39,139 nt of DNA, from the sequence record SRR20825019_1774; one strand, given 5' to 3'. Positions 54-38,697 of the stretch are shown in pieces. The notes under the pieces are model-generated. The model saw only the letters and a list, made by a program, of their open reading frames with translations. It ran no database searches and had not been told where the DNA came from. Within the stretch, counting starts at the first letter, position 1, and each line of letters begins with the position of its first letter. The translations under genes were made by a program, and so were the position numbers.

Positions 54-489
54 TGCAGAAGCACTTTGTGGAGACGCCCGGAAAAATGTTCTTCGTCTGC
101 TATGATGTAGAGACGTGAGTGAACCCTGCAGGAGTGCACTTGTGGTTGGCTGACCTCCTCGGGCCAGGGACGAGGTGGTGGGGTGTGTGGGGCTGGACAA
201 GCATTCGGACACCTGTGGGGAGCTTACGTGCATGAGTGTGTCGGAAAACCACAGACGACGGGGTATTGGCGCCATGCTGACACGGGCTCTGGAGGACCAC
301 GCACGGTCAATCGGCTACAAGGAAGTCATGCTTGGCACACTGAATATCTTCACGGCGGCTAGGGGGCTGTACGAGAAGCAGGGGTATGCGCTACAGAAGA
401 TGTTCGAGCCGGAGCAACCGGAATTTCGGGACAAGTTTCTGCAGTTCAAAGGAAAGATATGTCACTACACAAAGCAGTTGCCCAGATAG
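54..489 (+). CDS. GNAT-family N-acetyltransferase (NAT8/camello-like), 5'-partial, at least 2 exons
   Basis: Exon 54-114, intron 115-167 (gtgagt...gctgac...ccag), exon 168-489. Translation VVGCVGL...ELTCMSVSENHRRRGIGAML contains acetyl-CoA motif A (RxxGxG) and the motif-B-like AARGLYEKQGY. Confidence 0.85.
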
Positions 490-517
490 TAAATTCGCAA
501 GAAAACATGTCGAGGGT

Positions 518-2570
518 TTACGGGAAAATGCCGGTGATTTCGTGGGACTGGTGGATCTTCTCCATCGAGATCTTGTAGGACGCCTCGCGCATGGACATCT
601 CGGGCTGCAAAACACGAGTCAGGACGGGCGAATATGATAGGGACGTTGGCGGCCTGTACTCACGTCGGCAGCCTGGGCATCCTTGATGGCAGCGTAGGCA
701 GTGATCATAGCGTCCTCGAGGGAGGACCGGATGATGTCCAGCTCGTCGGCGCCACGTACAATGAGGGCGCGGTCGTACTCATTGAGGGGACGCTGGATGC
801 AGTCCTCCATTGCCTCGACCAGGGACTTGTTGGAGCCTTCCTCGTGGCGCTTAGTCTGTGGGACCGGTCAGCGTCACATCAGAACCAGAACAATGCAGGC
901 ACGGGGCGCCGCCTACTCACCAGGCGGCCATAGCGGACATGGGCAAGGTTCTTAAGCCACTCAAAGTACGCCGCAATGGCGGCACCACCAGCAAGGAACA
1001 CATCAGGAACAATCACCACACCCTTCTTCTCGAGGATGACCTCGGCGTTGGCAGACACGGGGCCGTGGGAAGCCTCACCGATGATCTTGGCGCAGACGCT
1101 ATGGGCATTGTCTGTGCGGATCACACGCTCGAGGGCGCAGGGCACCAAAATATCACAGGGCAGCTCCAACGCCTGCGGAGCAAGGGAAGAGAGGTGTTAG
1201 CTCAGCAGTGGGCCCCGGTACGCCGCAAAAGAGTTCCGCTCACCATCTGGGGCTTGTGGAATGAGGCAGTTCCTGGCATACCGGCAAGCTTGCCGGTTGC
1301 GTTCTTGTGCTTCCAGCACTCGTCGGGGTCCAGGCCGGAGTGGGCATAGCCCGCGGGCTTGCAGATTCCGCCGCTCTGGTCGGCAATACCAATGATTTGG
1401 CAGCCGTTTTGGTGCATCAGCTTCGCCGTCCTGTATCCCACCTTGCCAAACCCAAGGATGACCACCGTCTTTCCGGCCAGGCCGGGCGAGAGGCCGGTCT
1501 TCTGCAGCACCGACTCGTCGCTGAGGACCTCCTGCATCCCAAACAAGACTCCCAGGCCGGGCGCGTTATCACCGCCCTGGATTCCGTTCTGACGGGAAAT
1601 CTTGCCCACGGCAGAGCCGGAGGCATTCAGGTCTGTCATGTTGAAAGCGGTGTAGGTATCTGCGATCCACACCATCTCACTAGGACCAGTCTGGAAGTCG
1701 GGGGTGGCCTGAGGAAGGAGCGTCAGAGTTTAGCAACACCTTGGCCACCAACGAATACACTTACAATAGCCACGCCGGGGCCGTGCATTCCCTTTTTCAC
1801 CAGCTCAGAAGTAAAACGACGAACGATGTGCTCGCGGTGGAACCGGGTCCTGTTGGCAACCTCGGCCTTGATGCCCGCAGCACCACCTGCAACTCGTCAG
1901 CACAGCTAGCCAACCCAGCGTGACCATGGGCCATGGCCATGGCGTTCGTCCCCGCCTACCTCCGAACGGAAGATTGAAAAGAGCGCACTTGATGGTGTTC
2001 AACGCGGCGAGGGCGGTGATCTCGTCCTGATCTACTCCGGAGCTGATCCGGAAGGAGGTCAAAACAGGCTGCCTATGGCGGCTGTGCTGCACCTGGAACG
2101 CCTCCAGGCACTCCATATCCAGGTCGTCTCCCTGCACAAGCCGCATTAACACCATGCAGGTGGCACGAGTCCAACGACCCACCTTATCCAAGGGGAACAC
2201 GACTCGATATATGGACTGGGGCTCCTGCAGCATTTTCCATACGGACGCAGGGGTTGAGGAACACTCGGCGCCATCCTCGATGAACCTACGCACGCTCTGC
2301 CAGAACTCATTCCCGCCTTTCCTGAAGAGGGGACCCAGCTTCTGGGGAGCGGTTTGATCGACAAGCTCTTCCTTCGGGATTGGCTTGGAGCGCTTGCCTG
2401 CATTAGTTGCAAGGTCAGAAATAGGCCCAAACAATACGAGCGGGATGCGCACTTTCAGTTGTGCGGGATGCCACCTGGGTAAGCATGGACGGGTTTGCAG
2501 CGGACAAGCTCTTAGCGGACTGAAGAGCGAGGCCGGCCCCATTCTTACGGATCAGCTGCTGAACCAACAT
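518..2570 (-). CDS. Glutamate dehydrogenase-like protein (GLUD/ELFV family), about 8 exons, probable mitochondrial presequence, active-site residues substituted
   Basis: Spliced exons give QHSRHRQP...KCALFNLPFGG, PDFQTGPSEMVWIADTY, GKTVVILGFGKVG, ELPCDILVPCALE, YFEWLKNLAHVRYGRL, GADELDIIRSSLEDAM, all colinear with animal/ciliate-type GDH. ATG at 2570 begins MLVQQLIRKNGAGLALQSAKSLS (no acidic residues). Stop TAA at 518-520. Confidence 0.85.
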
Positions 2571-3611
2571 GGTGACAACAAAATGATCTGTTCAACCACG
2601 ACGCCTAAGAATATTCACAGCGCCTTATGCGGCTTGCATTTATAGCCTTGCAAGTGGGACAAGCTTGCTTGGCACGGAGGAATCAGCGTGACGAGGCACA
2701 GCAGCCTGCATGCTGCTCGCGCACCTAAGGCCTTGCGGGGCCGGTGGCCGTGCCCCACCAACTGGTAAGGGACTTGACCGCGCGGCACGCGGCGGAGGCG
2801 GGCCCCGAGTCGGTCTTGCGATGGTGTGTGCCGAGTCAGTCGGCCGAGCACGTCACTCCGCATCATCGGTCGAGCACGGGCGAGTCGGGGACTGGTGGCC
2901 GCCGGCCAGTGCGGCGGCCCACGGCCCGGGCGGCGTCACCGGTGAGGGCCGATCTCACCTGAGATCATCAGACGTTGAGGATGGCCACGGCCATCCTCGA
3001 CATTTGAAACTTGACCTAATCCCAATCATCATCAGGCGGGCCGCCGTTCCGCCACCAATACTTGGATCAGTAGCACGCAAACGGTCGCCCGCCCCCCACC
3101 CCACATGCCGCAGCAATTGTACAGTAATTGTAATTGTGACTTCGACCATACACCATGCACCAGAAGGCTGGTAGGGTGGGGCTGTGACGTAGCATAGACG
3201 TCCTTGTGGTTTCCGTTGCCAGTCTCGACTCTTGCCAGGAACCAAATCGGTTGGCCCCCCCACCCGGTGACGCCCCGCTTCAGACCATTGCCACAACTGC
3301 GGTTTGCTCGGGGCCTGCCGCTCCAGTCGCCGTCCGTGCGACCGGACGAGAGTCATCAGCCACCCCGGTAGTAGCCTTGGAGCGGTCATTGGCACCCGGC
3401 TCCGTTTCCGCCAAGGCAAAGGGCCAACGGTGTGAACCCTGACACAAGAACGAAGAATGGTTCGGGAAACCAGTCGCAGGTGTGTGCTTTTTAGAGTGGC
3501 TGGCAGCAGTGCACCACACGCCTTGCAAATAAGAGTGCCCACCCATCAAGGTATGCATATCAGCGAATAGGAGCACAGGGAGCCAGTGCGAGCCGTCCTG
3601 TGCGCCGCAAG
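2571..3611. promoter_or_regulatory. GC/CpG-rich divergent intergenic island (GDH-like / PAS gene)
   Basis: Head-to-head genes, GC-rich block ~2730-2950, CCAAT at 3022 and 3055, inverted repeat gatctca-cc-tgagatc at 2951-2966. May contain unrecognised 5' exons of the PAS gene. Confidence 0.55.
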
Positions 3612-6600
3612 ATGAAAAAGACTAACAAGGAACCAGATAAAGGCAAGGGAAAGGTGTCCTTGCAGACGGAAGATGCACAGGCCACTTTGTTCGGAACGCT
3701 TTTGCAGTCATACCGACAGGCTATAGTTATCATAGACAGCCGGGGAGTCATGATCGTAGTTTCACAGTCCGCGTGCGAAATGTTTGGTTACGAAGAGGAT
3801 TATCTACTCGGGAAGAACGTGACTGAGATCATGCCAGAGCGCTTCGCGCCCGACCACACCTCGTTCATTCAAGCATATTTGCAAACTGGTATTAAGAAGG
3901 TCATCGGGATGCAGCGGGTGATTCCCGCTCTCCGTGTCGGCGAGGAAGAGTTCCCTGTACAGATAGCGCTCTCCGAGATGGTGATAGACGATGAGCACTA
4001 CTTCTGCTCCATATTAACAGATGTGACCGAGCGCGTGCGTGAGGAAGAACGCCTCGCGCTGAGCGAGGAAAAGGCAAAGTCCATAACGGACGTTGTCAGG
4101 GACGGTATGAAAACCTCTTGGGTGACTAGGATTGTTAGGAAACTGGCTCACTTCGACTTGCAGGTATCGTGACGTGCAACTTTAAGGGTATTATCAATGG
4201 GATGAACTCCTCTGCCGAGGCGATGTTCGGGATTGAGCGGGAGGACGCTATCGGGCAGAATGTGAAAGTTTTCATGCACGATGAAGACGCCAAAGTGCAC
4301 GACGAAATGCTAGCGAGGTACCGACAGACCGGTAAGAAGGTTCGCATCGACCACCTGACGGCTATCCGGGCGAAGCGAATGGACGGGGAGGAGTTTCAGG
4401 CGGAGATTCGAGTAACTGAAGGCCTCGTTTCTGGTAGTGTGGTTTATATGGCGCACATTCATGAGTGCACCACTCAAATCCTCGAGGAGGAACAGGCCAA
4501 AAATCACGAGACCACGATGGAGCATATCATTGACTCGATTGCCGATGGAATTGTGACGATCGATGAGTACGGAATCATTCAGTACGCGAATCGTGCCGCT
4601 CTCAGCATGTTCCAGTTCCAGAGCGAGCACGCGATGCTGAAGAGAAACGTGAAGATCCTGATGCCTAACCCGTACCGCGACGATCACGATCTCTACCTGG
4701 AAGCCTACCGGCGAACGGGGGAAGCCAAGGTGATTGGGCAGAAAAGGGGACGCGACGTTCAGGGTATCCGCACCGACCATACCGTCTTCCCCCTGAGAAT
4801 TACGATAACAGAGGTATACGTCGGGGGAGTGCGCTTGTTTTCGGCTACGTTGCATGACACCACCGAGCAAAAGAAGAAGTTTGAGGCCATCTGTAAGAGC
4901 GAGGACAAGATACGTGGCTTGATAGAAAACAACGCCGATTGCATCGTGACCATCAACGAGCGGGGGGAGGTTGATGCGATGAACGATGCCGGCCTGCAAA
5001 TGTTTGGGTACACACTCTCGTATCTGCGCGGCAAGAACGTGAGCATTCTCGCTCCGGAACCTTATCGATCAGAACACGATGAGTACTTGGAGGCGTACCT
5101 CCGCACTGGTGTGAGGAAGGTTATTGGCCTGAGCCGTGCCGCCGAGGTGGCGGCCATCCGGAAGAATGGCGAGACGTTCCCCATCGAGATTGCAGTCAGC
5201 GAGGCAGTCGTGGGATCGCAGCGCTATTTTACCGCGATCATCCGCGACATTACTGATCGAATTTTGCGGGAAACGGAGTTGAAGCGCTCCGAGGAGCGCG
5301 TGCGATCATTTTTTGACACTGCCGCGGACGGCATGATGAGCATCGATGAGTACGGTGTTGTGGTCGCCGCGAACAAGTCAGTGACGCGAGTGTTCCAGTT
5401 TGAGGCATCCGAAATCATCGGAAACAACGTGTCCATGCTGATGCCATCCCCATACCGCGAGGAGCACGACTCGTATGTCCGCCGGTACGCCACGACAAGA
5501 AAGGCCACGGTGATGGGCATGGGGGCACAGGAGGTTACCGGGATGCGCAAGGATGGAAGCGTGTTCCCGCTGCAGCTTACGCTATCGGAGGCAATCGTTG
5601 GGTCCCAGACGCTGTACACCGGCATACTCCGAGATATCACTGATAGGAAGATTCAAGAGGAGGAGCTACGGGCTGCAGAAGAAAAGGTGAAGGCCATTCT
5701 GGACACTGCCTGTGATGGAGTGGTCGTCATGGACCCCTCGGGCATTATTGAGACGTTTAATGCGGCCGCGGAGACCATGTGGGGCTATGCCTCGCATGAG
5801 GTGATCGGGAAGAATGTGAACATGCTGATGCCTGAACCGTATGCTTCCAACCACGACTCATACCTGAATGCATACGCCATGACTGGAGAGAGAAAGGTGA
5901 TAGGTTTCAACAGGCAGGTTTCGGCTTGTCGGAAGTCCGGCGAGGTATTTCCGGTGGAGATTGGCGTGGCAGAGGTGCATGCGGGATCGCGCAAGGTTTT
6001 CACTGGAATAGTGCGTGACATTTTGGCCAAGGTGCAGCTCGAAGAGGAGCTTGCGAAGCGTGAGAACCGCCTCCGGGGTGTGATTGAGAGTGCCTCGGAT
6101 GGCGTCGTGGTGATTGATGATATGGGCGAGATAATGTCTTTCAACCATGCAGCCGAGAAAATGTTTGACCGGTTAGAGCCCGACACGACCGGGCAGAATG
6201 TGCGCATTCTGATGCCGTCGCCTTATGATAGTCAGCATGACGGTTACCTTAAAGCGTATCGGACCACCGGTATTCGCAAGATCATTGGGAATACACGCGA
6301 GCTGATTGCAAGGCGCTCGGACTCCAGCGTGTTCCCCGTGGAGGTGTCTGTCTCCGAGTCGATTGTGGGTAGCACCCGGCAGTTCACTGGAATAATCCGC
6401 GATATAACAGAGCGAAAGCACGCTGAGGAGAAGCTTAGAAAAAGTGAGGAGCGGATGAAGCTCATGATGGAGAACGCCATTGATGGTGTAATTTCTATTG
6501 ACGAGACTGGCACCGTTGTCGCTGCGAACCCCGCTGCCAACAAAATATTCGGGTATTCTCGGGGTGATCTGGACGGTGAAAACGTCAATATCCTCATGGG

Positions 6601-7867
6601 CGAGCCCCACCGTGGCAAGCACAATTCTTACATCAAGCGGTACGTGCAGACGGGCATCAGGCATATATTAGGGAAGAAGATGAATGAGGTGCGCGGGCTT
6701 AAGCGGGATAACACCGAGTTCGATCTTGCCTTGTCAGTATCAGAATCCACCGTTGGGTCGAGCCGCGTGTTTACTGGGATTGTCCGTGACATCACAGAAG
6801 CAAAGCAGAATGAAATGCGCGTAAAGGCCCGTGAAGAAAAAGTGAGGTCTCTCTTTGACGAAGCGCTGAAGGGTGTTATAGTGACGGACAACGTTGGTAC
6901 GATTCAAGAAGTGAACGCGTACCTGTGCAAGGTGCTGGAATACACCCCAACAGAATTGATCGGACAGAACGTTTCCATCCTGATGCCATCCCATATTGCG
7001 GAGGTCCACACACAGTTTATGGAGGCGTACACGGAGTCTGGCATTGCTCGCAGATCGGGAAAGGTAACGATGGTCACAGCTATAACTTCAAAGGGAAAAC
7101 CCAAGGACATGGAGATTGGGTTGTCAGACCTCGGCGCCAAGGCCAACTTTGTTGGCATTATGCGGGATGTCACAGTGCGTGTGAAGCATGAAGTGCCGAT
7201 CAGCATGGAGGTTCGCCTCGTGCACAAACCTCGGCCGGTCATCGAGGAAGGAGAAGTTCACTTTTCTGGAAGTGAGACTCTCTTTGAGAGCTCCCTTCCC
7301 GGAAAGTCATTGGACGGGCGGAGCGTCCGTCTGCCCCGCAAAGTCAATATGGTGCTGTCCCTCGATGATCTTCAAACATGGTCTGGATACGCGAACATTG
7401 ATGAGTCCGACCCCTTGGACAATCTGAACAACATCCTCCCCCCTGGTGTGTCAGCGGTGGAGAGAATCGCTGAAGGAGAAAAAGCCCGTGACAATAAGCC
7501 GCTGTTTGCACACGGTTCGGGCAGGAGCGAAGGGACGACGACGCACCGATCAGGGGCTGGCTCCAGTAGGGCTGCACCTGTAGTGACCATGAATCGGGGG
7601 TCGGTGTCGACCTGGAATGCGCCTGGCGGTGCGGAACAGAGTATGATGAGACAGCCCGTCGGTAGTGGCCTCGACAAGTACATGCCCGCGTACACACGTG
7701 AGTCATCAGTCAGGAGTGGCAGTGTCCTGAGGGCCCCGAAGTCGTCGCGGATTATCTCCGAGCCGTCCACCTTCAACGTAGCTAGCGCGCCACCGCCTGC
7801 GGCGAGCCAGCAGCCAAGCGTGTCCACTGGCTCCTATATGCATGGGGTGCCGAATCCCAAGCCCTGA
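3612..7867 (+). CDS. Multi-PAS protein with nine tandem FixL-like (heme-type) PAS/PAC domains and a low-complexity tail, ~1398 aa
   Basis: Exon 3612-4104, intron 4105-4163 (gtatga...ttgcag), exon 4164-7867. Nine repeats of DG(I/V)xxID..G...NVxxLMPxP....H..Y...Y..TG....IG...RDIT. The start could extend upstream. Confidence 0.9.
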
Positions 7868-7896: not shown

Positions 7897-10800
7897 CTAG
7901 TTGATAATGGGCGCCATCTCATCGGGTTGGATGTGGGCCCGAGCCGTGTTTCTGGGATACAACACCAGACTGCAGTGCATTGACTCAATAAAGATATCCT
8001 TTGAAGTACACAATTCTAGTTTAGTCTTATGTACGTGCAGTGTGCCACACGTTGCTTTGCTGCGACGGGCGTAGCTTCCTTCCGCCCCTCGGTCTTCCAC
8101 CGCGAGGCCGGTCCGTCTTCATTCCCACTGATGGAGGATATGCCATGTGTGATGGCTCCTTCCGTACTGGCTTCCTGTATACCACTTCGGTCTGTTTCGG
8201 ACGCAAACGCTTCTTATCATATATAAGTTTCGTATTTGCCAGTAGCAACTCCCTCGCGGACAGCATGGGAGGAAGCCGCTTACTTCTGACCAACCTTCGT
8301 TTCACGACCTTACGACGGCCCTTGAGGTAGTCGACCACGTGGCCTGGGAGGTGCATGCCCTGGTAGTACACCAGGTGCTCTTCCTCGTGACCCGGATCCT
8401 GACCAACCTCGGGCTCCTCGGCAATCTCCTCTAGATTCAGCGGTTGTACCCCGGGAGGCGGCGCCTTCTTTCCTGCCGGACGATCGCCTTTACCTTGGGC
8501 TTTGGCTTTGGGAATCTCCTCCTGGATCTCCTCCTGCACTTCCTCAGCCTCAGTGTTCTCAGGCGCCCTCGCTGCCTTCTTCAGGCTTTTGTAGTCGCCC
8601 AAGAGCGATTCCAGGGCAGATGACATGTCGGATTCCCCTAAGGTCGTGCGAGGGGCATCCATGTCGATGTCTGTCGTCAAGGCCTCCTCCACCTCAGGAC
8701 CGGCAGCTGTTTGCCACTGCCTAAACTCCGGCAGGTCAATTATGCCGTCCTGATTATCATCATACCTATCGAATATGGCCGCAACGTCTTCTTCGGCATG
8801 CGGAAGGCCAGATTTTGCAAGGAACGCGCCTACGTCAGCTCTGTCCAGGCCTCCCTTCCCCACCTTGTCGAGCTCCCAAAACGTCTCCTCTATTGCATCC
8901 ACGGGCTTTCTCTCTGATGTCTCATCGTCCTCGGGTATTCCCACCGTGGCTGTCCCTCGGGTGAGTGCCACCGAGGGCCGATGACTGCGGACTCCCAAGT
9001 CCGATAATGAACCCTTCCGAGATATCGCCTCCTGCGATTGTAGCGCCATAAGGATCATCATGTCCTTCTGGGCGATACTGTTCGACCGCTTAACCCGCCC
9101 CGTGCCCGGGCCAGCTCCACCAACGCCCCCATTTGCGGAACTCTCTTGAAGATCAACCTGACTCATCTCCACGGATGGCTCCATCGACCCTAAGGTCATA
9201 CCAGACTCTTCGCCATTCACGCGCCGTTGTAGCTTCGCTAGCAACGCACTTCGATTCGCCATCATGTTGGCCTCCCTCGCGGCCTGCCGCTCCTTGTTTC
9301 GTGCCTGCATGATCATAAGCAGCATCTTCTGTCTCTTGGCGTTTTGTTCACGTGCCTCGGCCTCTTTCGCCTCCTTGCGTGCCGACTCGCGCTTCACAAA
9401 TAGCCACCTTTCCTCACGTTGCTTCCTCTGCTCACGGATGTACATCTGTTGCTCGTAATCGATCTGCTTTGCACTCATCTCCGCGGCGGCATTATCTACG
9501 TCCAACGACTCCTGGGACTGTGGGGCAACCTCCCGCCCGGTTGACACGAAGGTGTACGACGGGCCGCACGCCACAATCATCGGCTCTAGACCAAGCAAGT
9601 TGTCCACGACATGAGGAAACATCTTAGATTCAGGAGCCGCACCGGAGACCCCGAGCTGACCCTGTTCGCCCAACCCCCAGGTGTTGACAAAGGAGTGGCC
9701 TTCGTCATTCTCAGTGATTGCCGCGCTGTGCCATTGACCACATGACACATCCACGACCTTGCCGTCCGTGAAGTAAGCGACATGAACAGGGACCTTCTTG
9801 GTCGCAGTGCTGCCGTGACCAAGCTGGCCGAGGTGCCCGAGTCCCCAGGAATACACCTGATTGTCTGCCGTCAGAGCAACATTGTGGGCGAATCCACAAG
9901 AAATTTTCATGACGAATACTCCAAGGTCCTCGAAAGTGTCCACCCTGTGAAAATCATTAGCACGCCAGACGACAATGGGACACGCTGCCGTCTTTCTTAC
10001 CTGCATGGACTTGTCTTCATCTCCAGGCTGTTGATGCCCAGCCTCCCATCGTCGCCCAGACCCCACGAGTACACAAATCCTGCCACTGTCACCACCACAG
10101 TGTGGTGGGCACCAGTTGCAATATCAACAACACGGGCGTCAGAAAGGTCGTCCACCTCCATGGGTGTGGGCATGCTCTCCAGATTCCCATGGCCAAGCGC
10201 ACCGACACGTCCATTGCCCCAGGTGAACACCTTCGTCACCTCGTTTCCAGCCACCGCAACAACACAGGTCGTGTGCTCCTCGCCACATGCCACGGCCACA
10301 ACTTTCTGGCCTTTCAACGCCTCAACCATTCGAGGCGCATACTCATTCTGCTGCTTTCCATGACCCAGCTTAAAGTTTGCGCCGGATCCCCAGGTGAATA
10401 ACTGTCCGCTGTCGGTGGCAGCAGCCACGTGATCGCTGCGGGTGCTAATCTTTACAACCATTCTCCGTGAAAGACTGGAAATGGATTCTGGTTCGAACGA
10501 CAACGTCCGCTCCTCTCCGCATCCAAGCTCGCCCGACTTGCCCTTGCCCCAAGACAACAGATCCCCAGTTTCCTTCAATACAACGACAAACGTGTATCCA
10601 CAAGCAACGTTTCTGAACGAAAAGGGTTTGGAACCGAACTCGATTTTCATCGGACGGGCAGAGAACTTGTCGTGGGGGCCATTGCCGCGACCCAGTTGGC
10701 CGTACATTCCTGTTCCGCACGAGAATAGTGACAGCGGAAGTATGCCGCGGGCACCCATCGCCTTCTCCCTTTCCTTGGTCTTTGTGTCCCGCATCTGTTC

Positions 10801-26058: not shown

Positions 26059-27103
26059 TTACTTGACTGAGTGTCTAGTATATCTATTACGAATATCCTG
26101 GTGGGTTCGATATTTTTGTAGAGTACGCTGGTTGTTCGATAGTCCTGTCGGCGACGAACTGAACGCTGGAACGAACTGAGCGTCGCAAGCACTCATCAGG
26201 CTGTCGCGTTCCATGGCGGTGCGTGGGCATGGCCGAAGCGCCACTGGCAGCGTCCCCTCCGCATTGTGGTCTGACCGGCGTAGTTTGTGCCTGGCACCGG
26301 CCGATGCCAACTTGAAGCTCCCCGGTCACTCACTTGAAGCCTGACACGAGAGTAGCGGGGTGCCTCGGTCGGCCACGGACCGGACTCGTCTCGTTGAGGC
26401 GGTGGATTGCCTCACAGCCAGTGATGACCAGTCTGTTGCCGCGGCTATGGGCTTGCCGGACCCGGTATGTCCGAGGTCCCGACTGAGACCGTCACTCGCC
26501 TCACGTGGCAGTGGTGCTTGGGGGCGCCCGTACTACACGCGTCACGTCACGATCGCAGCGCAGTAGGACCATCCCGGGACAGCCGCCCCCCGCCTCATCA
26601 AACATCATCAAGGCCGCCGCGTCGCCACCATATGAAGCGCGAATGTGGAGAATCGATATCCGATGATATCTAATTAAACCGTTGATGGTTCCTTGCGCCC
26701 TCGAAACAAAGGCCGTGGATTCGGATTCCCGCACTCTCATGGCGCTTCATCGACAGGAGGTGGCGGGCGTGCCATCTTCCCCGGGGGTCGGCGCCACGTC
26801 GGGTTGTCTCACCCGCTGCCGGGCAGGCCACTGGGGCGGCCAGGGGCCGGGCGGCCGCGGCCGTTCAGGGGCGGCCACCGGGCCGGTCACCACGGGGAGG
26901 ATCTGATTGGATCCTCGTCACGAGCCCAGTGGCGCGGCGCGACCCAGTCCGGTGGGACCGACCGTCGAGTCGCCCTGACCCTGATGGTTTGCTGAGGCGC
27001 GGTTAAACCAAGTCACATCATGGGTTGATATATATTCTGCTCTTCTTCGTTGTCCAGTGAACAGGGTCTTGGACAACGCCCGTAAAAGGCACCAGCGTCA
27101 GCC

Positions 27104-28542: not shown

Positions 28543-29655
28543 TTATCTCTTTAGTTGCCTTCTTTGCTGTTCAATTTGTATCCGAATCCGTATTGACCGA
28601 AGTGTTAAACCGCAAATCGTACTGATAAACCCAGCGAGTCCAACCAACCAGTTCGGAAGGGGGTATCTGGGATGGGCAAAATGAAAAGCAAGAATACTAT
28701 CCGTCAAATTTGCAATAGTTTTCAGGGTCCAAACACGACGGGCCAGACGGAAGCGGCGAGACCCTAGTAGACACGTCAGTATCCTTACCAGCCGGGTGAT
28801 TGCTCATCCTGTCATACCTTGGCGGGCCTTTCTCTGAATATCTAGCCCCAGCTCCTCGGTAAAGCAGTCACCCAGGTCATCATCACATTCCTTCCTTATT
28901 TGAGAATATTTTGCCCTACGCACGTGTAAGAACCTTCATAGCCTTTCCTATTACGTAAACATACTGGGCCTTTTTATACCGATACCGATCAAGGATCAAG
29001 TCCAGTACAATGTAGACTCCCCACAAGTAACAACTGCCCCGCGACACCGCGTACGCACTTGATTGAGACAAGGGAAGCAGTCCCATCACATCGGCAGCAC
29101 AATACGTGTTGTCCATAGGGTAGTAAGCAAACATGAGGGCATTCTGCCAAGTAGATATCGTTCTGGTACCCCTGTTATTCACAATAGAGTTCCAGCGACC
29201 CAAAACATACCTTTCGAACTGGTCTTCGCACTTCAGTGCGGTAAGCATACCCTCCACAGTCTCTGGAATGCCAACAAGTCGAAGCATTGTCCTTGCGTTC
29301 ACCAGGGATGTGATGCCTTTCGTAAGGTGTGTATTCAGACCCTTCGGAGCCCCAGCAGCCTTGAGAATCTCGACAGCAATTAATGCCCCATACCCGCACA
29401 CACGGAAACCCGAGTCTATGCCGCTTCTAGTATTCAAGATTTGCATAGCAGTCTGTGCGAGTACTAGAGTCAGTTTTTATGCAATCTCCCAGCACACAGG
29501 CAGACCTCAAGTGTGGCTTGAGGCAGCTTTGCTAGTCTTGATCGTTTTTCTGCATCCGAGCTGGAAGGATTCCTGCCACTCGACCCGGATGCTGCTCCAC
29601 CCTTCGCTATTTTCTCATAACCAAACGGGACAGGGGAAGGCCTTGCGCTCACCAT
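28543..29655 (-). CDS. PEX11: Peroxisomal biogenesis factor 11 family protein, 4 exons
   Basis: Spliced product ...LNTRSGIDSGFRVCGYG...SLVNARTMLRLVG...YYPMDN...SRGSCYLWGVYIVLDL...NLTDSILAFHF...LPNWLVGLAGFISTICG matches the PEX11 layout. Stop TAA 28543-28545. Confidence 0.75.
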
Positions 29656-30771
29656 ACCTGTGCACGTTTGTCACGGTTGATTTTTCGGCTTTATATATGG
29701 CAAGGTGCAGAAAACTCCGAGAGTGGCCTGACTTTTGTTCATCGACCCACAAGCCCAGCAGCCTGAACCGTCGTACTTCCGAGTCAAAATGGCTCTTGCC
29801 TGGTCCCTCTAGCCTCGGCCGGCAGTTCGTCTCCGGCGGCTGGCGGAGTGAGACATGCGTCATCGCCCACTGAACAGTGTTTGTCGTCGCGGTCCCCGGT
29901 CAGTTTGGCAGGGTGGTGGGTGGCTGGATGCCAGGAGTGCACCGCAACTACACTCGTTTCACTCTTGGTAGGCCGCCTCACTCCAGTCACCGCCCTCACA
30001 GGGCTTGCTGGCCCGGCTCGCCAGTCAGTCAGTCCTTGGTCCCGCACCGGCACTGTGGGGCCCACCGGGGCCGGGCCATCAGCCGGGGCCGGCACCGGTC
30101 GCGAGGCGCCGCCGCGGGCCGCGCGCGCCGGGTGCGCCCCGGCGGCGGGCGGGCGGCCCGGGCCGTGGCACCTGACCGGCACTGGCACGCCCGCGCGCGG
30201 GCCGGCCTCGCACTGGGCCCGCCGGCGGGCCCAAGGCCCGGGCCGCGCCGCAGGGCCGCCGGCCGGGCCAGTGGTGCCGGGCCGGCGGCCGCGGCCGGCG
30301 GGTCGAGCGTTATCTCCTTCCGATCTCGATCTCGAGATTGAGTGTCCGTTGCTCAGCAACGCCTGAGTGTCACCCGGCAAGGCCGGGAGGATCACCCTGC
30401 TCACAGCGGCCGCGGGGCGCGCCGCTCAGCCGGCGCCGGCGATCACTCGGCACCCGCGCGCTGCGAAATCCTCGACTCGGAGGCGGCTCCGGGCAACCAA
30501 CACTGAGTGGGCCGCGCGTCACGCCACCGGCCCGGGAGTAGGGCGGCGATGCGTTGCCGGGGGAGTTCGCGTCGCCGATCGTCCCACCCGGCGGCCGAAG
30601 GAGGCCGCCGCGGGGCCCGGCCCGTTCGTTCAAGGGTGGTCTGGATCGGGGCCGTGTCACGACCAGTGAAGGGATCACCGCCTTAGTCTAGTGTCTACTA
30701 CTCTGCATGCCCTGTCAGACATGTATCATTATATATTCTGGATTTTGAGGTGTACTAGTGCCTTAAGGGTC
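29656..30771. promoter_or_regulatory. Extremely GC-rich divergent island (PEX11 / MORN gene)
   Basis: 30060-30300 is almost entirely G/C. Short core at 30305-30360 with GATCTC repeats and the palindrome GTTGCTCAGCAAC. Second GC block 30370-30660. Confidence 0.6.
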
Positions 30772-32568
30772 ATGACACCTGCAAGTCTTGCGCGAAGTCA
30801 AAAACTACCGGAGCGGAGGGACAATGGACCCGTCACCGTAAGTACTGCAGATGGTAGGAAATACAAGGGCACCGTGAATAAGTCTGGTGCATTTCATGGT
30901 AAAGGCACTCTGACTTATAGCGAGAACGAGAGGTATGAAGGCGAGTTCAAGAACGGGTTGCGTCATGGTACTGGCACTCTCACCATTGTCGGGGAGGAAA
31001 ACAAGGAAGGAAAATACGTTGGAGACTTCTCAATGGATGCTGCTAGTGGGAAGGGCGTTTGCTTCTGCCCAGATGGGACAAAGTTTGAAGGAAACGTCGA
31101 TAATAATGCGTTTAACGGACAGGGTTCTGTGTCATATCCTTCCGGAAGCGAGTATATCGGGCAATTTTCACAGGGATTAAAGTGTGGTCATGGCAAGTTT
31201 ACTGGGGCCAATAGCGAAGTCTACAGTGGACAGTACTATGACGGTAGGAAAAGCGGAATAGGGACATTGTATTTGCCTTCCGGGGATGTATATGAAGGAC
31301 AATGGCACTCTGGATACCAAGTCGGGATGGGGACATTGACATACTCGGATGGGTGCAAGTATCACGGGGAGTTTAGAAACGGCGCCATGCACGGTGAGGG
31401 AACATACACCTTCACTAATGGAGAAAAGTATACTGGAGAATGGAGGAATGGCGAAATGGCCGGCCAGGGAAAGTATATGCATAATGGAAATGAAAAATAT
31501 TTTGGACATTTCAGAGAGAATGCTAGAAATGGTGATGGAGAGTATACATTCGCAAGCGGCGCTACATACACGGGTCAATGGAGGCAAGGGAAAATATCTG
31601 GGCAGGGTGTGTTCAGAACAAATCGGAAGCCAAAACAAGGCAACGACGTTTCCGATACCATAACACGAAATGCTGCTGTAACCGAATATGAGGGGGAATG
31701 GCTCGAAGGTCGTCTTTGTGGCCGAGCTCAGATATTGTTTGGCAACAGAACTTCTCTTGCAGGGACCTTCTTGGAGGGGCGACCATCCGGTATCGTAGAG
31801 ATGTCGTTTAGAAACGGAGATAAATTCGTGGGAGAGATGAGCCCGATGCAGGCGTGGCTTTATGGGCGTTATGAGTACAACAATGGCAGTCGTTTTGATG
31901 GATGCTTGAAAGGTGGTCGGCCTCATGGCTATGGGACGTTAACCAACGCTTGCGGCGATGTGTTCACTGGTGAATTTAAGAATGGAGATAAGGAAGGACG
32001 CGGTGAGATGATCTATGCGAATGGTGCATCCTATAGTGGACAATGGAAGTCTGGTTTGTATGACGGATCCGGCGTATTCACATTCCCAGATCGCGTTAGT
32101 GCAAGCACCACGGATGACTCGGTTCATCCATCGGAGATAGGACCAGATGTATACGACGGCCAGTGGGCAGGGAGCAAGAAACATGGTTATGGGACATACA
32201 CCTTCAATCGCACTGACGGAACGACCGAGCGATACGAGGGATACTGGGAGAATGACGCCATGCATGGAGAGGGTCTGTACATCTATAGTGACAAAGGGTC
32301 GCTTCGCGGTAAGTGGGTTTACGGCGAAAAACACGGGACCGCTGTGTACACAACACCCAAGAATGTTCAGTATCAAGAACTGTGGAAGAATGGCAGTCGC
32401 GTCAAGGCCGTCAAGATGGAAACCCCTGTGAATGTTTCACCACCGGAGCCCCCTGTTCCAGGAGCGGAAAAGCCATCACCACGTGCATCTACTGCGCCAA
32501 CTAAGGGTCACGATAGCGAGAGTCTACCGTCAGCGAGGAGAAGGCATCATCAACGGAAGAAGAGCTAA
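30772..32568 (+). CDS. MORN-repeat protein (roughly 20 repeats), intronless, no catalytic domain seen
   Basis: Repeated YEGEFKNGLRHGTG / YTGEWRNGEMAGQG / YEGYWENDAMHGEG units. ATG 30772 chosen within ORF 30691-32568. Confidence 0.9.
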   Translation: MTPASLARSQKLPERRDNGPVTVSTADGRKYKGTVNKSGAFHGKGTLTYSENERYEGEFKNGLRHGTGTLTIVGEENKEGKYVGDFSMDAASGKGVCFCPDGTKFEGNVDNNAFNGQGSVSYPSGSEYIGQFSQGLKCGHGKFTGANSEVYSGQYYDGRKSGIGTLYLPSGDVYEGQWHSGYQVGMGTLTYSDGCKYHGEFRNGAMHGEGTYTFTNGEKYTGEWRNGEMAGQGKYMHNGNEKYFGHFRENARNGDGEYTFASGATYTGQWRQGKISGQGVFRTNRKPKQGNDVSDTITRNAAVTEYEGEWLEGRLCGRAQILFGNRTSLAGTFLEGRPSGIVEMSFRNGDKFVGEMSPMQAWLYGRYEYNNGSRFDGCLKGGRPHGYGTLTNACGDVFTGEFKNGDKEGRGEMIYANGASYSGQWKSGLYDGSGVFTFPDRVSASTTDDSVHPSEIGPDVYDGQWAGSKKHGYGTYTFNRTDGTTERYEGYWENDAMHGEGLYIYSDKGSLRGKWVYGEKHGTAVYTTPKNVQYQELWKNGSRVKAVKMETPVNVSPPEPPVPGAEKPSPRASTAPTKGHDSESLPSARRRHHQRKKS

Positions 32569-32700: not shown

Positions 32701-33831
32701 TTAGAATTTGTGCAGCTTGGTAACAATACCAACACGCACGCTCTGATCGAAGGATCCATATACACAGAGACCTTCCTTATTCGGGTGCCAGTCAAAGCAG
32801 CAGATAGGCTGCGAAGAGATGGGCTTGCGATTCAACAGCTCCACTTCCCCTGCGACACCCTTAACCTCCCCTTCGAATGTTGATATCCGCCTCTGCTCCG
32901 GATAGTTGTATTTGTACAAGTTCAAAGAACCATCACCGCCACCGATCATAAATAGATCTCGGTTCTGAGGAAGATGCTTCCCAACCCAGATAGTGGTACC
33001 CTGCACCTTAGACTTGGCAATGGTGCAGGCGAAGCCTTCTTCCTTGTGCAATGTTCTCAAGTCATAGACTCGGAACCTGTTCTCCAAGGTGGTGGCCACA
33101 AACTTATTCATCTCGATATTCTTTCGATCGAACTCAAGAGCACACACTCCATTCTTAACATTTTGTTCCCACTTGATCTTGTTTGTACGGAGGTCGAACA
33201 TTTTGATGTCTCCGTTGTCATACCCGGCAAGCAAACACCGCTCGTCTTGGTTGTAGGAGTTACCAAAGGACACCGCCCAGCAGTCTCGGGCCTCTCCTGC
33301 TTCAGGCTCGTAGGAGGCTACTGGTTTCTCTTTCTGACGTACATCCCAAACGCGAACACACCCATCCCGACTACCAGTGGCAATTTCTGGCGCACCATAC
33401 CCTAAAACTCCGCCACATCCATCAATAGTGTTGATGATTTGTTTGTGGGCTTTCACGTTGTATACGGGAGTATCAAGGCGTTCAATATCCCAGGTGTTCA
33501 GGCGGCCTTCAAAGTCACCAGTAGCTAGGTGCCTCTCCTCGAGTGGAGAGTGTCCGAAAGTGCAGCATTTGAAGGATGCGTGCTTCTCAGACTCAGTAAT
33601 AAGCTCTATGTCGCCATGATTAAGCTGATAGATCTGAATTGCACCGGTGCCGCGAGCATGGCAGCCTACAAGTGCAAACCTGGCGCTGGAAGGAACCCAC
33701 TTTGTGTCATATACTGTCAAAGACAAAGGCTTGTGGATGTGGTCCACGATCTGGGGGGCATCCTTCAGATCAACACCAATGGGGTTAGGGGCGGGAAGCT
33801 CCTCGTTCGAACCAATAACTCCGTGTTCCAT
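32701..33831 (-). CDS. WDR92: WD repeat protein 92 (DNAAF10/Monad), dynein assembly cofactor, intronless
   Basis: PQIVDHIHK...YDTKWVPSSARF...HARGTG, RHLATGDFEG, GAPEIATGSRDGCVRVWDVRQ, AGYDNGDIKMFDLR, FDRKNIEMNK, HLPQNRDLF, FDQSVRVGIVTKL. Confidence 0.93.
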   Translation of the reverse strand: MEHGVIGSNEELPAPNPIGVDLKDAPQIVDHIHKPLSLTVYDTKWVPSSARFALVGCHARGTGAIQIYQLNHGDIELITESEKHASFKCCTFGHSPLEERHLATGDFEGRLNTWDIERLDTPVYNVKAHKQIINTIDGCGGVLGYGAPEIATGSRDGCVRVWDVRQKEKPVASYEPEAGEARDCWAVSFGNSYNQDERCLLAGYDNGDIKMFDLRTNKIKWEQNVKNGVCALEFDRKNIEMNKFVATTLENRFRVYDLRTLHKEEGFACTIAKSKVQGTTIWVGKHLPQNRDLFMIGGGDGSLNLYKYNYPEQRRISTFEGEVKGVAGEVELLNRKPISSQPICCFDWHPNKEGLCVYGSFDQSVRVGIVTKLHKF

Positions 33832-34626
33832 GTTTGAATACTTATTAGTCTGTCTCAAACTGCATATACATATCAATTGTGGCGCTAAAGTGTGGTGGGT
33901 GGGATGGAGCCCAGCCGGCAAGTGGGCTTCATGAAAGAAGATAGGCCTTGTGACTCGTAAGAGACTTGGGCAGGCGGGAGAGAGGGGCCGTGTGGGCGTC
34001 GTGGTGGCTGCTGGCGGAGCAGCCAAGGGACTATCCTGTCACCACCACCAGTGGTCGCGTACCCTTGTTGTGACAACGCAGCCTACCCCCCGGTCCCGTC
34101 CGGGTTGGCTGACATGGCGCCAGGACATGCCATCCTTCCTGATTGCGCACGCCACGAATCACGCAGTTTGAGTCCTCTGCTCTATGCGTGTTCCAGTCGA
34201 CCCGGGAAGTGATTGGGGCTCAGATGGAATGGCGGGTTTGCTCTATCATTTTCGCAATCCCCATCAAAGCCCAACTGAACCAAAATTTGAAAATTTAATT
34301 TGGGCTGTCGTTGATTGCCTACCCTCTACTTATACTTGAGGAGGGCTTCGTCGTTCAGCACAGTGAAGGCGGCGGGGACGTCACTCCAACACGAGGGCAG
34401 AGACGCGCCGGGGCCCCCCGAGTTCAGCCGTCAACCGGCCAGGGCCGCTCGTGAACGGGAGCGGGGGGCCTTGCTTTCCCACATCGCGTCACCAGGTCTG
34501 TCGGGGCCCTCACCCCGAACCTGAGGCGCGCCTCACTTCTGGACTTCTGGGCCACACCGCCATTCCAGCGTACTTGCTGAAGTACAAATGTGCCAAATTA
34601 TATTGGGGAAGTGAACCCTTGGAATC

Positions 34627-35843
34627 ATGGACTCGTCTATTGCGCAGAGGTCCTTTGAGTTTGCAAACAATATTCAGGAAGTTGATAATATATTCAAGTA
34701 TGATCACGCGGCCCAGCAGCAGCAGCTTAGTGCTAAGCCGTGGAGGACAGAGTAAGTTACACCAAAGCCACGTTACATCAAAACCACAACTTAGTGCTGA
34801 CCGCGTCGCAGCCCCAACTACTTCAAGCACGTGAAGGTATCTGCCATCGCATTGCTCAAGATGGTCATGCACGCTCGCTCAGGAGGGGATATTGAGGTCA
34901 TGGGAATCATGCAAGGAAAGATAGATGGTGACACAATGATCGTCATGGATGCGTATGCGCTCCCCGTAGAGGGTACAGAGACTCGCGTAAACGCTGCCTC
35001 CGAGGCTTACGAGTATATGGTCGAGTATGCTACACAGATGAAAAAGGTATCACTTCTCTTTTCTAGATGGCAGGCTGTGAAGTGACGAATGTTTTTTTAA
35101 AGGTTGGCCGGCTTGAAAATGTTTTAGGATGGTACCACAGTCATCCTGGCTATGGGTGCTGGCTCTCTGGCATTGATGTGTCTACACAAGAGTTGAACCA
35201 GCAGTATACTGAGCCTTTCCTTGCCGTAGTGGTAATTTCGTTGGTGGTAGCTTGAAAACTGGTTCCTAAACTTCTTTGCAGATTGACCCTACCCGCACCG
35301 CCGCCGCGGGCAAGGTTGAAATTGGCGCCTTCAGAACATATCCTACTGACTACACACCTCCTGATGAGTCCCCATCGGAGTACCAAACTATTCCCATGGA
35401 CAAGATCGAGGACTTTGGCGTGCACTGCAAGAGGTACTATCCTCTGGACATTACGTACTTCAAGTCTTCATTGGATACCCACATGCTCAATCTCTTGTGG
35501 AACCGATACTGGGTGAACACTTTGTCATCTTCACCCATGTTGGCGGTGAGCATGATAGACCTCGTAACTTCAATTTGTGAAAATGGGGCTGACTGCTGTA
35601 CAGAATCGGGCGTATACCAGTGGTCAGGTATGCGACCTTGCGGAAAAATTGGAGCAGGCCGAGGGCCAGATGGCACATACTAGAGGGATATCGGGGGGAT
35701 ACTTTGGGTTGGATAAGAAGAAGGAGGATTCACAGTTGACCAAGATCAATAGGGATAGCACAAAAATTGCTATTGAGCAGATGCATGGTCTCATGGCACA
35801 GGTGATCAAGAGTGCTCTGTTTTCGTCTGAAACCAAGCCATAA
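34627..35843 (+). CDS. COPS5: COP9 signalosome subunit 5 (JAMM isopeptidase), 5 exons
   Basis: [60 protein letters not shown] (JAMM). Introns 34752-34811, 35047-35102, 35232-35281, 35546-35603. Confidence 0.97.
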
Positions 35844-35956
35844 GAAACTGGCATGTATCGTTTTACCTTGTTTCAATCCGGGCACATGGCAGTCCTAGGC
35901 GCCACGTTCCGCCGTTGTTGTGAGTATAACAAAGGCACCACAACTTGCTTCGTTGT

Positions 35957-38697
35957 CTACTTCTTCTTCCCCACACGTTCGTGTTTCTTGCTTTCTGTTT
36001 TCCCTAGACCGGCATACTTCTTACTATCATTAGTGCTCATCTGAAAGCGGTCTCAGATACAGTTCATATTAACATGCTAGGCACGTACCTTGGTGCGATC
36101 TCGACATCCCTTGCCACCCTCCCAATGCGCCGAGGACGTGTCCGCGGTCAATGCCGCCCCACAAACACACGGCTTATTCGAGAAGTTTTGCTCTCGCGAA
36201 CAGAATCCACATATCATGCTGTTGGCATAGGCCATTTCGTGCTCACCCGCGACCTTTTCGTCATGGCACACATCACAAGGGTACGCCGCCCCGCAGCATG
36301 GGAATCGTAGCCATCTATGGCTCTTTTTGTAGTGCTGGCAAGATCCTTTGTCTGGCAGAGGCTGGCCTACAACAATACCTTCATCCTTTCTGATTTGCGC
36401 ACGCTTTCTTGCTGCCGCCTTTGCGCTTTCTACGCGCTCCTCCTTTCCGCTTGTTCCTGCCCCCGCCTTTTGCTGGATGAAGGATATTCCATCGTAAACA
36501 AATGTAATCGGTTTGTGACAGGTGTGGCATCGGGCCTGTTGCATCTTGCATAAATACCGCGAAGCCTAGGCCCCCCAGGGTCACTCACCTCATGCATCTT
36601 ACCACGCTGGACTTTCTTCAGCATAACGCGTTCAGAGCACTCAAAGCATGAAGCCTCAAAATCCGATGGTCGCACATCAAGGACAGAAAGGCCAACTACA
36701 TCGAGGTACCCGCCTATAGCAGAAAACTCATGAAGTGCTTCCATGCGAGCCTCGACCACAACTTGTGTGTAGCACCCAGGGCATAGTTCTACATCACACA
36801 GACATGTGAGGACAATCAAGTGAGGCATGATCCAGGTTTCTCACCCTTGAACTCATCCTCTTGGGTGACCTTAACCTCTACTCGCGCACTGCATTTGTGA
36901 CAAGACATTGTGAGGCGAAGACGCTTCGGCATAACGATTCCAGCACCAGTCATATTCAACCCTTCAAGCTTGAATTGAGTACCCTTCGCCAGAGCAATCT
37001 TCTTTTGAGGCTGAGCCTCTCGAGCTCTATCTGCAATGGGAGGCGCGGCGGAAGCATGTCCGGCCGCCAAAGCCTGCTGACCTGACGGGACAACCTGAAC
37101 TCCTGCTCGCGACAACTCAAATTGCTGGGTTACTCTCCTAAAGGCCATCTAGTTAGCTAGAATATTCGGGGAAGTGGGCTCCTAGGTTTGCTTACTTGTC
37201 TACAAGCAAACTCTCCAAATTGTTGTCCAAGTATTTGAGCAGCGGCTTCATCATGATCTTTGAATGTGGTCAGCATTCGCCCAAGCAATGAAGGCAAGTC
37301 ACATCACCAACCTTCCCCGCCATTTCAACTGCCTTGGCATTCATTGCACGCTCAACATTCCTGCAGAGAAACATAAGCATCAGACAGAGAAGGACAACGA
37401 TATCTGGGAAATATTACTTGCACAAATTCTCAGGAATGTCGGCGATATCCGGATCTTCATAATTGATAATCTCAAATCCACAAGGCTCCTCAGGGTATTT
37501 TGCTGGTATAGTTATTCGCACGTAGACGAGCTCCACATCGAAGGGGAAATCGGGATCTGACGGCTTAAATGCGATCCTGATCACTTTAGGGGGGCCATCC
37601 TTGATCAGTTTATACGATTGAGCGAACCTGCGTTTGACTTGGCCAAACTCCATGTCTGGTGTGACTTCTGGCGCCGCAGCTGCTGCGCGAGTCACTGTCG
37701 CCATGTTTCGGATCTGCGGGGTAGCTGACACGGGCCGCGTTTCACTAGAAGGCTGGTCAGTGTTCGCCTCGGCTTCTGGAGCGGACTGTGGACGGTTTCC
37801 TTTTTGCGATTCCTCATCTTCTGCATTCCCGGAGCCCTTATCCCGGTCAGATCCACCTTTTTTGCCACTTTTCCCCTTTTTATCGCCTTTTTCTTTCTTT
37901 TCACGGCGTGCTCTCTGTGGCTTCTCCTTCTTGCCAACTCCGCCACCACTACCTGCTGCTTCACTCGGTGCAAGTGTTGTCTCGTCAACATCTCCATCAA
38001 CACCATGCTTCGCATGCCCTTTGCCTTTGCCGCCACTAAGCGACAGCTTCGACAACTGTTCGTTTATGACCTGGGAGAGGTCACCATCAGGGTGGTGGTT
38101 TTGCACGATGACATCCATGAGTTTTGCCCGCAGGCTTTTGGCATTCCGTCCCGCTGGAAAAGGATCAACAATACTTAAGGCGTGATGCTTGCTATATGCC
38201 CTTACCTGGCTTGAAAACTCTCTTTTCCCAAAGGTCAGCTGCACGGAAAGCATTCCTGGTGTTTCCCCGATTCACCCGCACTACACGTCACAATGTCATT
38301 CCCTGGCCGAGAATCTTCAACGAGAGTCATGCTCACGTACATAACGGCACATAGTCGGATATCATTAAGCGGACGAAGTGATCAGGCCAATGGCTGGACT
38401 CCTCTCGGAATGCCGCATGTTGTGCGGCTGTTGGCTTATCACTAGCGGTCCCACCATCCTGCTTGCTGTTTTCCTTTAGTTTTTTTTCTTTTGAGTCTGG
38501 CTCCGAAGGTGTTTTATCCCCTAAAGGGTCGTGGGAGAACCTGATCTCGGTGGTGAGACTCTGTCGCGAAAATAATTCACCAACACAACGCGCAACCTGC
38601 ACTTGTCTCCAAACCTACAACCTTCTTCGGAGGCGAAGAACTTGCAAGGCTTCTGCTTGCTTCCTTGACTACTTGTTTGAGTTTTCCCCTCTTCCAT
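35957..38697 (-). CDS. Multi-exon protein with N-terminal CCCH zinc finger, RWD-like region, CxxC pairs and C-terminal CHY zinc finger
   Basis: KPCKFFASEEGCRFGDKCR(F)SH, PSDPDFPFDVE...IPAKYP, CHKC/CPGC/CFEC/CHTC, GSCQHYKKSHRWLRFPCCGAAYPCDVCHDE...MICGFCSREQ. Ends DSKKYAGLGKTESKKHERVGKKK* at 35957. Alternative ATG 38748. Confidence 0.8.

Follow-up and report, generated by a model that had tools for sequence, protein, structure and literature searches.

Locus organization

Sequence record SRR20825019_1774 is a 39,139-bp stretch of DNA from a gene-dense eukaryote, the whole of which is referred to here as the window, with a GC content of 0.43 to 0.68 per kb. It carries 16 genes in 39 kb with introns of mostly 48-60 nt, and the subject of this report is the orientation of these genes and the organization of the spacers between them. 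The genes follow the order + - repeated eight times, as described in an earlier note made from the sequence alone, and neighbours lie on opposite strands in 15 of the 15 pairs. The window contains no tandem pair, and none of its 15 junctions mixes a terminator with a promoter. Seven complete head-to-head pairs are present, each with a GC-rich divergent spacer (called an island below), and one further island is cut by the window end. The islands are numbered S1 to S8, and the coordinates of all genes and islands are given in Table 1.

Evidence sources and gene models

Genes were supported by Pfam matches of single-exon translations, by the models of a simple gene finder and by contigs of a public run, X1, which were placed on positions 17500-37499 and confine transcript support to that part. 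The kind of run is not on record. The X1 contigs contain 29 joints (15 listed), each of which skips 48-60 nt with the ends GT..AG or CT..AC, and the skipped stretches, when extracted, gave the consensus GTAAGT/GTATGT ... CTAAC/CTGAC ... YAG. From these joints and this intron consensus we infer that X1 is spliced RNA or a transcript assembly. Contig depth differs between the members of a pair but cannot rank their expression. The gene finder made genes too long when the intron penalty was lax and broke two of them up when it was strict, and was used only alongside Pfam and the contigs. Strand and name are backed by Pfam for 14 of the 16 genes, and the small membrane protein gene (TM) and the gene labelled 'ARM' are backed by spliced X1 contigs.

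Missed or fused genes could hide tandem neighbours and so produce the alternation as an annotation artefact. The first 17.5 kb, being outside the X1 span, have no transcript support, and the gene finder split both 20935-24490 and the CHY zinc-finger gene under strict intron settings. The earlier note had itself named two models as suspect, 19445-20152 as possibly false and 20935-24490 as possibly two genes, and both proved sound. The first, TM, is covered by a 773-nt X1 contig with CT..AC introns at 19671-19722, 19757-19812 and 19958-20005, and the longest open reading frame (ORF) of the spliced contig runs exactly from 20152 to 19445 (183 aa), the coordinates originally proposed. The second has GT..AG introns in X1 and a continuous spliced ORF of 894 aa that ends at 24490. 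Its only candidate break, 21980/22011, came from the gene finder under strict settings and is bridged by a spliced 979-nt X1 contig (20854 to 22188), which identifies 20935-24490 as a single gene. The 976 aligned letters of this contig equal the seven exons left by six introns, three observed and three predicted (66, 50 and 81 nt), the 81-nt intron removing a stop codon. The CHY gene is likewise single, since canonical introns of 54-58 nt (37138-37195, 37258-37311 and 37361-37417) join its upstream exons in frame, and so is the RCC1 gene, in which a 56-nt intron joins two ORFs with RCC1 repeats in both halves.

Searches for additional genes were negative throughout the window. ARAGORN gave no tRNA, Rfam gave no match at the gathering score or at E <= 0.1, and all 14 ORFs of 82-228 aa in the divergent spacers were without a Pfam match. 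The longest spacer ORF was not longer than in first-order Markov simulations in seven of the eight spacers, and the GC content of the spacer ORFs showed no structure by codon position. The length of the remaining one, a 228-aa ORF in S4 (20163-20846, minus strand), was reached in only 3 % of the simulations, which is a point for the artefact; the GC content of this ORF is flat by codon position (0.61, 0.64, 0.61) and it has no Pfam match, while a clear GC dip at codon position 2 is seen in six of the eight real genes or exons checked. No extra gene, tRNA or Rfam RNA was found in the window. X1 contigs were absent from the interior of S4 to S7 and from S3 as far as 18166, an absence that does not count as evidence for empty spacers.

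Table 1 Genes, TATA-like boxes and divergent spacers (islands) of the 39,139-bp window
Feature	Coordinates	Strand	Size and composition	Details	TATA-like box
GNAT acetyltransferase	86..489	+		Gene-finder model; Pfam Acetyltransf_1 on 154-486 (E 1.8e-16), profile positions 42-116 only	
Glutamate/ELFV dehydrogenase (GDH)	518..2570	-		About 6 short introns (model); Pfam ELFV_dehydrog_N 1808-2551 -, ELFV_dehydrog 1205-1729 - and 882-1196 -	TATAAAT, 74 nt upstream of ATG
S1, GDH/PAS	2571..3611		1041 bp, GC 0.61	Central AT patch 3114-3173; ORFs 2692-3171 + and 2958-3545 -, no Pfam match, no longer than in simulations	
Multi-PAS-domain protein	3612..7867	+	1398 aa (model)	One intron 4105-4163; Pfam PAS (E 3e-107), 8 stretches on 4139-7864 +, one more on 3495-4169 +	
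RCC1-repeat / EF-hand protein	8027..11904	-	1273 aa (model)	Intron 9945-10000; Pfam RCC1 and EF-hand on both ORFs, 8030-10123 - and 10000-11937 -	TATATAT, 101 nt upstream of ATG
S2, RCC1/thiolase	11905..12900		996 bp, GC 0.62	Central AT patch 12391-12450; 3 ORFs without Pfam match	
Thiolase	12901..14348	+	391 aa (model)	5 short introns; Pfam Thiolase_N on 13031-13618 + (E 2.6e-53), Thiolase_C on 13955-14470 +	
EDC4 (enhancer of mRNA decapping 4)	14566..17454	-		Intronless; ATG 17454, alternative 17541; Pfam EDC4_C and Ge1_WD40 (within 14569-17550 -)	AATATAA, 68 nt upstream of ATG 17454
S3, EDC4/RPL19	17455..18265		811 bp, GC about 0.56	Central AT patch 17806-17865; ORFs 17993-18535 - and 17687-17986 -, no Pfam match	
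RPL19e	18266..19129	+	210 aa	Introns 18372-18550 and 19025-19076 from X1 loose ends; Pfam Ribosomal_L19e_C (E 3e-34, 18487-19032 +)	
Small membrane protein (TM)	19445..20152	-	183 aa	Three introns; hydrophobic segments; no Pfam match	AATATAT, 32 nt upstream of contig end
S4, TM/'ARM'	20153..20934		782 bp, GC 0.59	Central AT patch 20559-20618	
'ARM' label, family unassigned	20935..24490	+	894 aa (model)	About 15 introns	
UDP-galactopyranose mutase (UGM)	24919..26058	-		Intronless; Pfam GLF on 24922-26058 (E 7e-73); X1 contig 24788-26084	
S5, UGM/DnaJ	26059..27103		1045 bp, GC 0.62	Central AT patch 26627-26686; 2 ORFs without Pfam match	
DnaJ-domain protein	27104..28468	+		Intronless; Pfam DnaJ (E 5.5e-26, 27086-28465); X1 contig 27059-28487	TATATAT, 30 nt upstream of contig end
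PEX11	28543..29655	-	302 aa	Four CT..AC introns in X1; Pfam PEX11 (28919-29476)	TATATAA, 32 nt upstream of contig end
S6, PEX11/MORN	29656..30771		1116 bp, GC 0.70	CCGGGCCGG-type microrepeat; AT-richer patch 30309-30368; 3 ORFs without Pfam match	
MORN-repeat protein	30772..32568	+		Intronless; Pfam MORN, 12 stretches (E 1.3e-78, 30670-32565); X1 contig 31440-32655	TATATAT, 42 nt upstream of ATG 30772
WDR92 / DNAAF10	32701..33831	-		Intronless; Pfam WD40 (32704-34038); X1 contig 32685-33839	
S7, WDR92/CSN5	33832..34626		795 bp, GC 0.57	Central AT patch 34242-34301; ORF 33961-34209 + without Pfam match	
CSN5 (COP9 signalosome subunit 5)	34627..35843	+		Four GT..AG introns in X1; Pfam JAB on exons 34813-35046 and 35103-35231, CSN5_C on 35604-35840	
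CHY zinc-finger protein	35957..38697	-		About 9 introns; X1 CT..AC intron 36041-36088; Pfam zf-CHY 36080-36565, near C-terminus	
S8, start of further GC-rich island	38698..39139		GC 0.73	Cut by window end	

Divergent spacers

The ATG-to-ATG distances across the seven complete islands (Table 1) agree with the range of about 780-1120 bp first noticed, and that of S3 becomes 724 bp with the alternative EDC4 ATG. Divergent and convergent spacers form two classes that overlap neither in length (782-1116 bp against 28-428 bp) nor in composition, with GC contents of 0.56-0.70 in the complete islands and 0.73 in S8 against 0.35-0.50 in the convergent gaps. All 23 of the 200-bp windows in the whole sequence that reach a GC content of 0.66 or more lie in divergent spacers. 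S8, a GC-rich island at the end of the window, leads to the prediction of a 17th gene on the plus strand beyond it.

The islands share a mirror-symmetric plan. In each of the seven complete ones the 60-mer of lowest GC content (0.32-0.52) falls near the middle, at 0.47-0.61 of the island length, and has a 100-mer of GC 0.65-0.93 on either side of it; AT content rises again in the outermost tenths of the island. The central AT patch may be a boundary or a shared element. Short palindromes occur in some central patches (GTTGATA...TATCAAC in S2, GATATC repeats in S5), and short GGCCGGGC/CCGGGCCGG-type microrepeats were seen in the GC blocks of three islands (12161-12188, 30238-30301 and 38934-38965). 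The hexamers TCACTC and CACTCA, counted with their complements, occur 14 times each in the 7 kb of spacers and 8 and 12 times, respectively, in the remaining 32 kb, and are thus 5-8 times denser in the islands; the 28 occurrences compare with 14.8 +/- 4.7 in second-order shuffles (z about 2.8). Examples of this candidate promoter motif, whose support is modest, are found at 17599-17609, 26326-26333 and 30339-30370. BLAST among the spacers gave only GC-rich low-complexity and palindromic matches. The spacers were also considered as CpG islands, and this reading was dropped because the contrast in observed/expected CpG is weak (0.75-1.15 in islands, 0.67-1.09 in genes).

Promoters and convergent gene ends

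Of the 16 genes, 8 have a TATA-like box in the 150 nt that precede the ATG; the corresponding share of random 150-nt windows is 7.4 % (binomial P 6e-6). In TM, DnaJ, PEX11 and MORN the box precedes the end of the X1 contig by 29-41 nt, the canonical distance from a TATA box to the start of transcription, and in CSN5 it does so by 13 nt. UGM has its own AT-rich box upstream. The outer contig ends of a pair are 684 bp (S4), 974 bp (S5), about 1104 bp (S6) and 771 bp (S7) apart.

The seven complete pairs have the orientation that the operational definition of a bidirectional gene pair asks for, being adjacent, on opposite strands and head to head. They are not of the mammalian CpG-island bidirectional type, given the TATA-like boxes in half of the genes, the weak CpG contrast and starts 0.7-1.1 kb apart. 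Near-obligate bidirectional promoter architecture had been proposed for the locus at the outset. The head-to-head and tail-to-tail tiling and the distinct, uniform class of divergent spacers support part of this proposal, of which the words 'near-obligate' concern the genome as a whole; the TATA-like boxes at the edges and the two GC blocks of each island speak against one initiation region common to both genes. Judged by their sequence, the islands look like two unidirectional promoters placed back to back and not like one shared bidirectional core.

The stop-to-stop gaps between convergent genes are, in order along the window, 28, 159, 217, 315, 428, 74, 132 and 113 bp. In one X1 contig the four CSN5 introns, on the plus strand, are spliced out together with the last CHY intron, on the minus strand; because introns of both strands are spliced in a single contig, the convergent CSN5 and CHY mRNAs overlap across their 113-bp spacer (region 35844-36235).

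Extent of the alternation

Under random orientation, 15 consecutive switches have a probability of 0.5^15 = 3.05e-5, as calculated before, and within the window the opposite-strand excess is significant by the test used in the brown-algal preprint cited below (binomial against 0.5, 15/15). A switch rate of 0.62, the brown-algal level, gives 15/15 with a probability of 7.7e-4. Treated as a fair sample, the window would put the one-sided 95 % lower bound of the switch rate at 0.82. Runs of this length are expected 0.15, 0.9 and 2.9 times per 10,000 genes at switch rates of 0.5, 0.57 and 0.62, respectively. Because about three such runs are expected at the last of these rates, a near-obligate rule cannot be proved from a single flagged window. 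The likelihood ratio for a switch rate of 0.9 is about 270 over 0.62 and about 6,700 over 0.5. For genomes with at least 80 % switches, an illustrative Bayesian calculation turned priors of 2 %, 0.2 % and 0.02 % into posteriors of 0.96, 0.71 and 0.19. The alternation is non-random and most likely reflects a strong orientation bias of the genome or region, above the 60-65 % known in brown algae. Whether at least 80 % of neighbours in the genome or region lie on opposite strands is close to an even call, and if anything falls a little short of one.

Features of individual genes

The window edge has probably removed the 5' part of the GNAT gene, because the Pfam match covers the C-terminal two thirds of the profile and the gene abuts a run of 24 G with which the window opens (1-24). 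This run is probably a contig-end or sequencing artefact. In the 1398-aa PAS protein, nine PAS domains (eight in the main exon and one in the first) make up nearly the whole length. The best homologues of EDC4 are vertebrate EDC4 proteins at 23-28 % identity, and the matches to it in a metagenome scan were two distant relatives, 21-26 % identical, with none from this organism or a close relative.

The island S3 also holds a 5' untranslated exon of RPL19 and its 54-nt intron (18209-18262), and the first coding intron of this gene (18372-18550) is, at 179 nt, three times as long as the usual introns of 48-60 nt. SnoRNAs are often hosted by introns of ribosomal-protein genes; Rfam gave no match in the RPL19 introns. 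At the RPL19/TM boundary (around 19300) the GC content of the genes changes from 0.54-0.59 on the left to 0.43-0.50 on the right, which resembles a compositional domain boundary in a uniformly organized locus.

The name 'ARM' found no support, since five of five exon ORFs tested were without a Pfam match. UGM is of the short bacterial type, with 57-63 % identity among the 120 best matches listed, which include Bacteroidetes and diatom proteins and among which there was no closer relative. This gene, earlier put forward as a candidate for horizontal transfer, conforms to the alternation. One X1 contig matches the DnaJ gene only from 27191 on, and its 92 letters before that point differ and occur nowhere in the window; it could represent a paralogue, an allele or a chimeric contig. 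Identities of WDR92 are 50-64 % among the 120 best matches listed, which come from many eukaryote groups, and all named proteins among them are WDR92/DNAAF10 or WD40 proteins. Neither a close relative nor a self match was among the listed results of the UGM, WDR92 and EDC4 searches. Three gene boundaries given before were revised: the MORN ATG is more likely at 30772, the PEX11 stop is at 28543 and the RPL19 ATG at 18266.

Interpretation

The best explanation, held with somewhat more confidence than doubt, is that the locus consists of tail-to-tail gene pairs tiled next to one another, with separate directional promoters in mirror-symmetric double-promoter islands, and that it derives from a strong orientation bias. 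Each gene would have its own directional core promoter, often of the TATA type, preceded by a GC-rich block some hundreds of bp long, and two such promoter halves, back to back around the central AT-richer patch, would form an island of 0.78-1.12 kb. All promoters would then lie in divergent spacers and all 3' ends in convergent spacers of 28-428 bp of AT-richer DNA. Because the strands alternate, no promoter stands downstream of a neighbour's terminator; transcriptional read-through would never enter a promoter, and the 3' spacers would be free to shrink to almost nothing. The arrangement may also maintain itself. The alternation would survive inversions or translocations that break in islands only, and a break in one of the tiny convergent spacers would be harmful to 3' ends; the pattern could be self-preserving because only breaks in islands leave both the genes intact and the alternation in place. 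On a larger scale, the whole genome or large parts of it might be tiled in this way, with at least 80 % opposite-strand neighbours under a near-obligate, self-preserving rule into which arrivals such as the bacterial-type UGM fit, a generalization that we offer tentatively and with the balance somewhat against it.

Several points weigh against this explanation. The alternation rate is based entirely on a single window of a single genome. For GDH, thiolase, PAS and RCC1, which lie in the first 17.5 kb, the introns are models only. The X1 contig ends are a proxy for transcript starts and not mapped starts. The TATA search used an ad hoc pattern, and 8 of the 16 genes gave no match. The P value of 8e-5 for island symmetry uses the interval 0.45-0.62, which was chosen after the data had been seen. 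The central patch could equally be read as a regulatory element common to the two genes, and this reading would speak for a true bidirectional unit. Finally, the independence of the promoter halves, the avoidance of interference, the self-preservation and the genome-wide extent are drawn by us from the pattern, and the arguments on interference and self-preservation are reasoning and not results.

Among the alternatives, a chance run in a random or mildly biased genome (50-65 % opposite-strand), noticed for its striking look and with promoters simply needing more room than terminators, fares best and is nevertheless improbable. The run counts given above indicate that such stretches occur somewhere in mildly biased genomes. 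About 50 % of neighbouring pairs are co-directional in most species of a survey of 64 eukaryotes, of which a few are described as 'less random', and divergent spacers longer than convergent ones are ordinary, the fungal means in the same survey being 1343 and 688 bp (PMC2871058). With the 0.02 % prior, the mild-bias class comes out ahead (posterior 0.74). Against a chance run stand the likelihood ratios, which are left unchanged between genome classes by picking among many windows, and the absence of a terminator-promoter junction in all 15 cases. The start of S8 past the last gene also predicts that the pattern goes on.

Slightly less probable again is that each island is one unit, a shared bidirectional promoter in which the central patch, the TCACTC-type motifs or both drive the two genes, the pairing being kept by their shared dependence. 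The single mirror-symmetric plan of all seven complete islands speaks somewhat for such a unit, as does the density of TCACTC and CACTCA in the islands, the enrichment of which is, however, modest. The distances between contig ends are less than 1 kb in three of the four pairs, within the usual limit for head-to-head bidirectional promoters, whose transcription start sites are reported to lie less than 1 kb apart (PMC2648788, PMC2670823), and divergent pairs of Ectocarpus are described with common nucleosome-depleted regions (bioRxiv 10.1101/2024.02.19.579948). The directional TATA-like boxes at the outer edges, 0.68-1.1 kb apart and at the canonical distance from contig ends, and the presence of two GC blocks in place of one argue for separate promoters. 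There is also no evident functional link within the pairs GDH/PAS, RCC1/thiolase, EDC4/RPL19, TM/unknown, UGM/DnaJ, PEX11/MORN and WDR92/CSN5. An annotation artefact is very improbable, in view of the bridged and joined gene models and the negative searches of the spacers.

Comparison with known systems

Most eukaryotes have near-random gene orientation and the strongest reported biases lie little above 60 % opposite-strand, so that a genome-wide rate of at least 80 % would be a new extreme. If true, tiling by tail-to-tail pairs and double-promoter islands would provide a natural experiment on transcriptional interference, terminator sharing and promoter sharing in genome architecture, and would also inform on rearrangement constraint and on the accommodation of foreign genes. 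The uniform plan, from one TATA edge through a GC block, the central AT patch and a second GC block to the other TATA edge, suggests compact, well-delimited promoter modules, which could serve two-gene expression in this organism. If the genome-wide rate is ordinary, the window is only a curiosity.

Cock et al. (2010) are said to have noted an excess of opposite-strand neighbours in Ectocarpus. For brown algae including Ectocarpus, a recent preprint describes a 'strong tendency' to opposite-strand neighbours that is 'greater than 60%' at most (bioRxiv 10.1101/2024.02.19.579948). As in the window, adjacent genes there tend to lie on opposite strands; the divergent pairs of these algae are tied to a common promoter chromatin. 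In contrast to the window, the brown-algal genomes are large and intron-rich, with long 3' untranslated regions and short divergent spacers; here the divergent spacers are long and GC-rich, the convergent ones are tiny, and the alternation is 15/15 in one window.

Animal bidirectional promoters are typically TATA-poor, with close or overlapping initiation zones. They resemble the islands in that head-to-head pairs have a common GC-rich spacer of up to about 1 kb. They form a minority of junctions, whereas every junction here is head-to-head or tail-to-tail, with TATA-like boxes at the edges and starts 0.7-1.1 kb apart. In Amphimedon, for instance, 22 % of junctions are given as head-to-head, 21 % as tail-to-tail and 57 % as head-to-tail (PMC4773876).

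Among compact genomes, an excess of head-to-head orientation among close neighbours is reported for Chromera and Vitrella, the latter with a median intergenic distance of 92 bp (PMC4501334). These chromerids are similar to the window in combining a compact genome with a head-to-head excess, and differ in that only an excess is reported, with data not shown, and no alternation in long runs. The 'less random' compact protist and fungal genomes of the 64-eukaryote survey also depart from 50 %, and the text of the survey suggests no near-complete alternation (PMC2871058). A full-text literature search gave no report of near-complete alternation, and the per-species tables (PMC2871058 Table S1; Phaeoexplorer Table S1) may hold higher values. 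The kind of bias seen in the window is thus already known from other eukaryotes, and its degree, if general, together with the mirror-symmetric plan of the islands, would be new.

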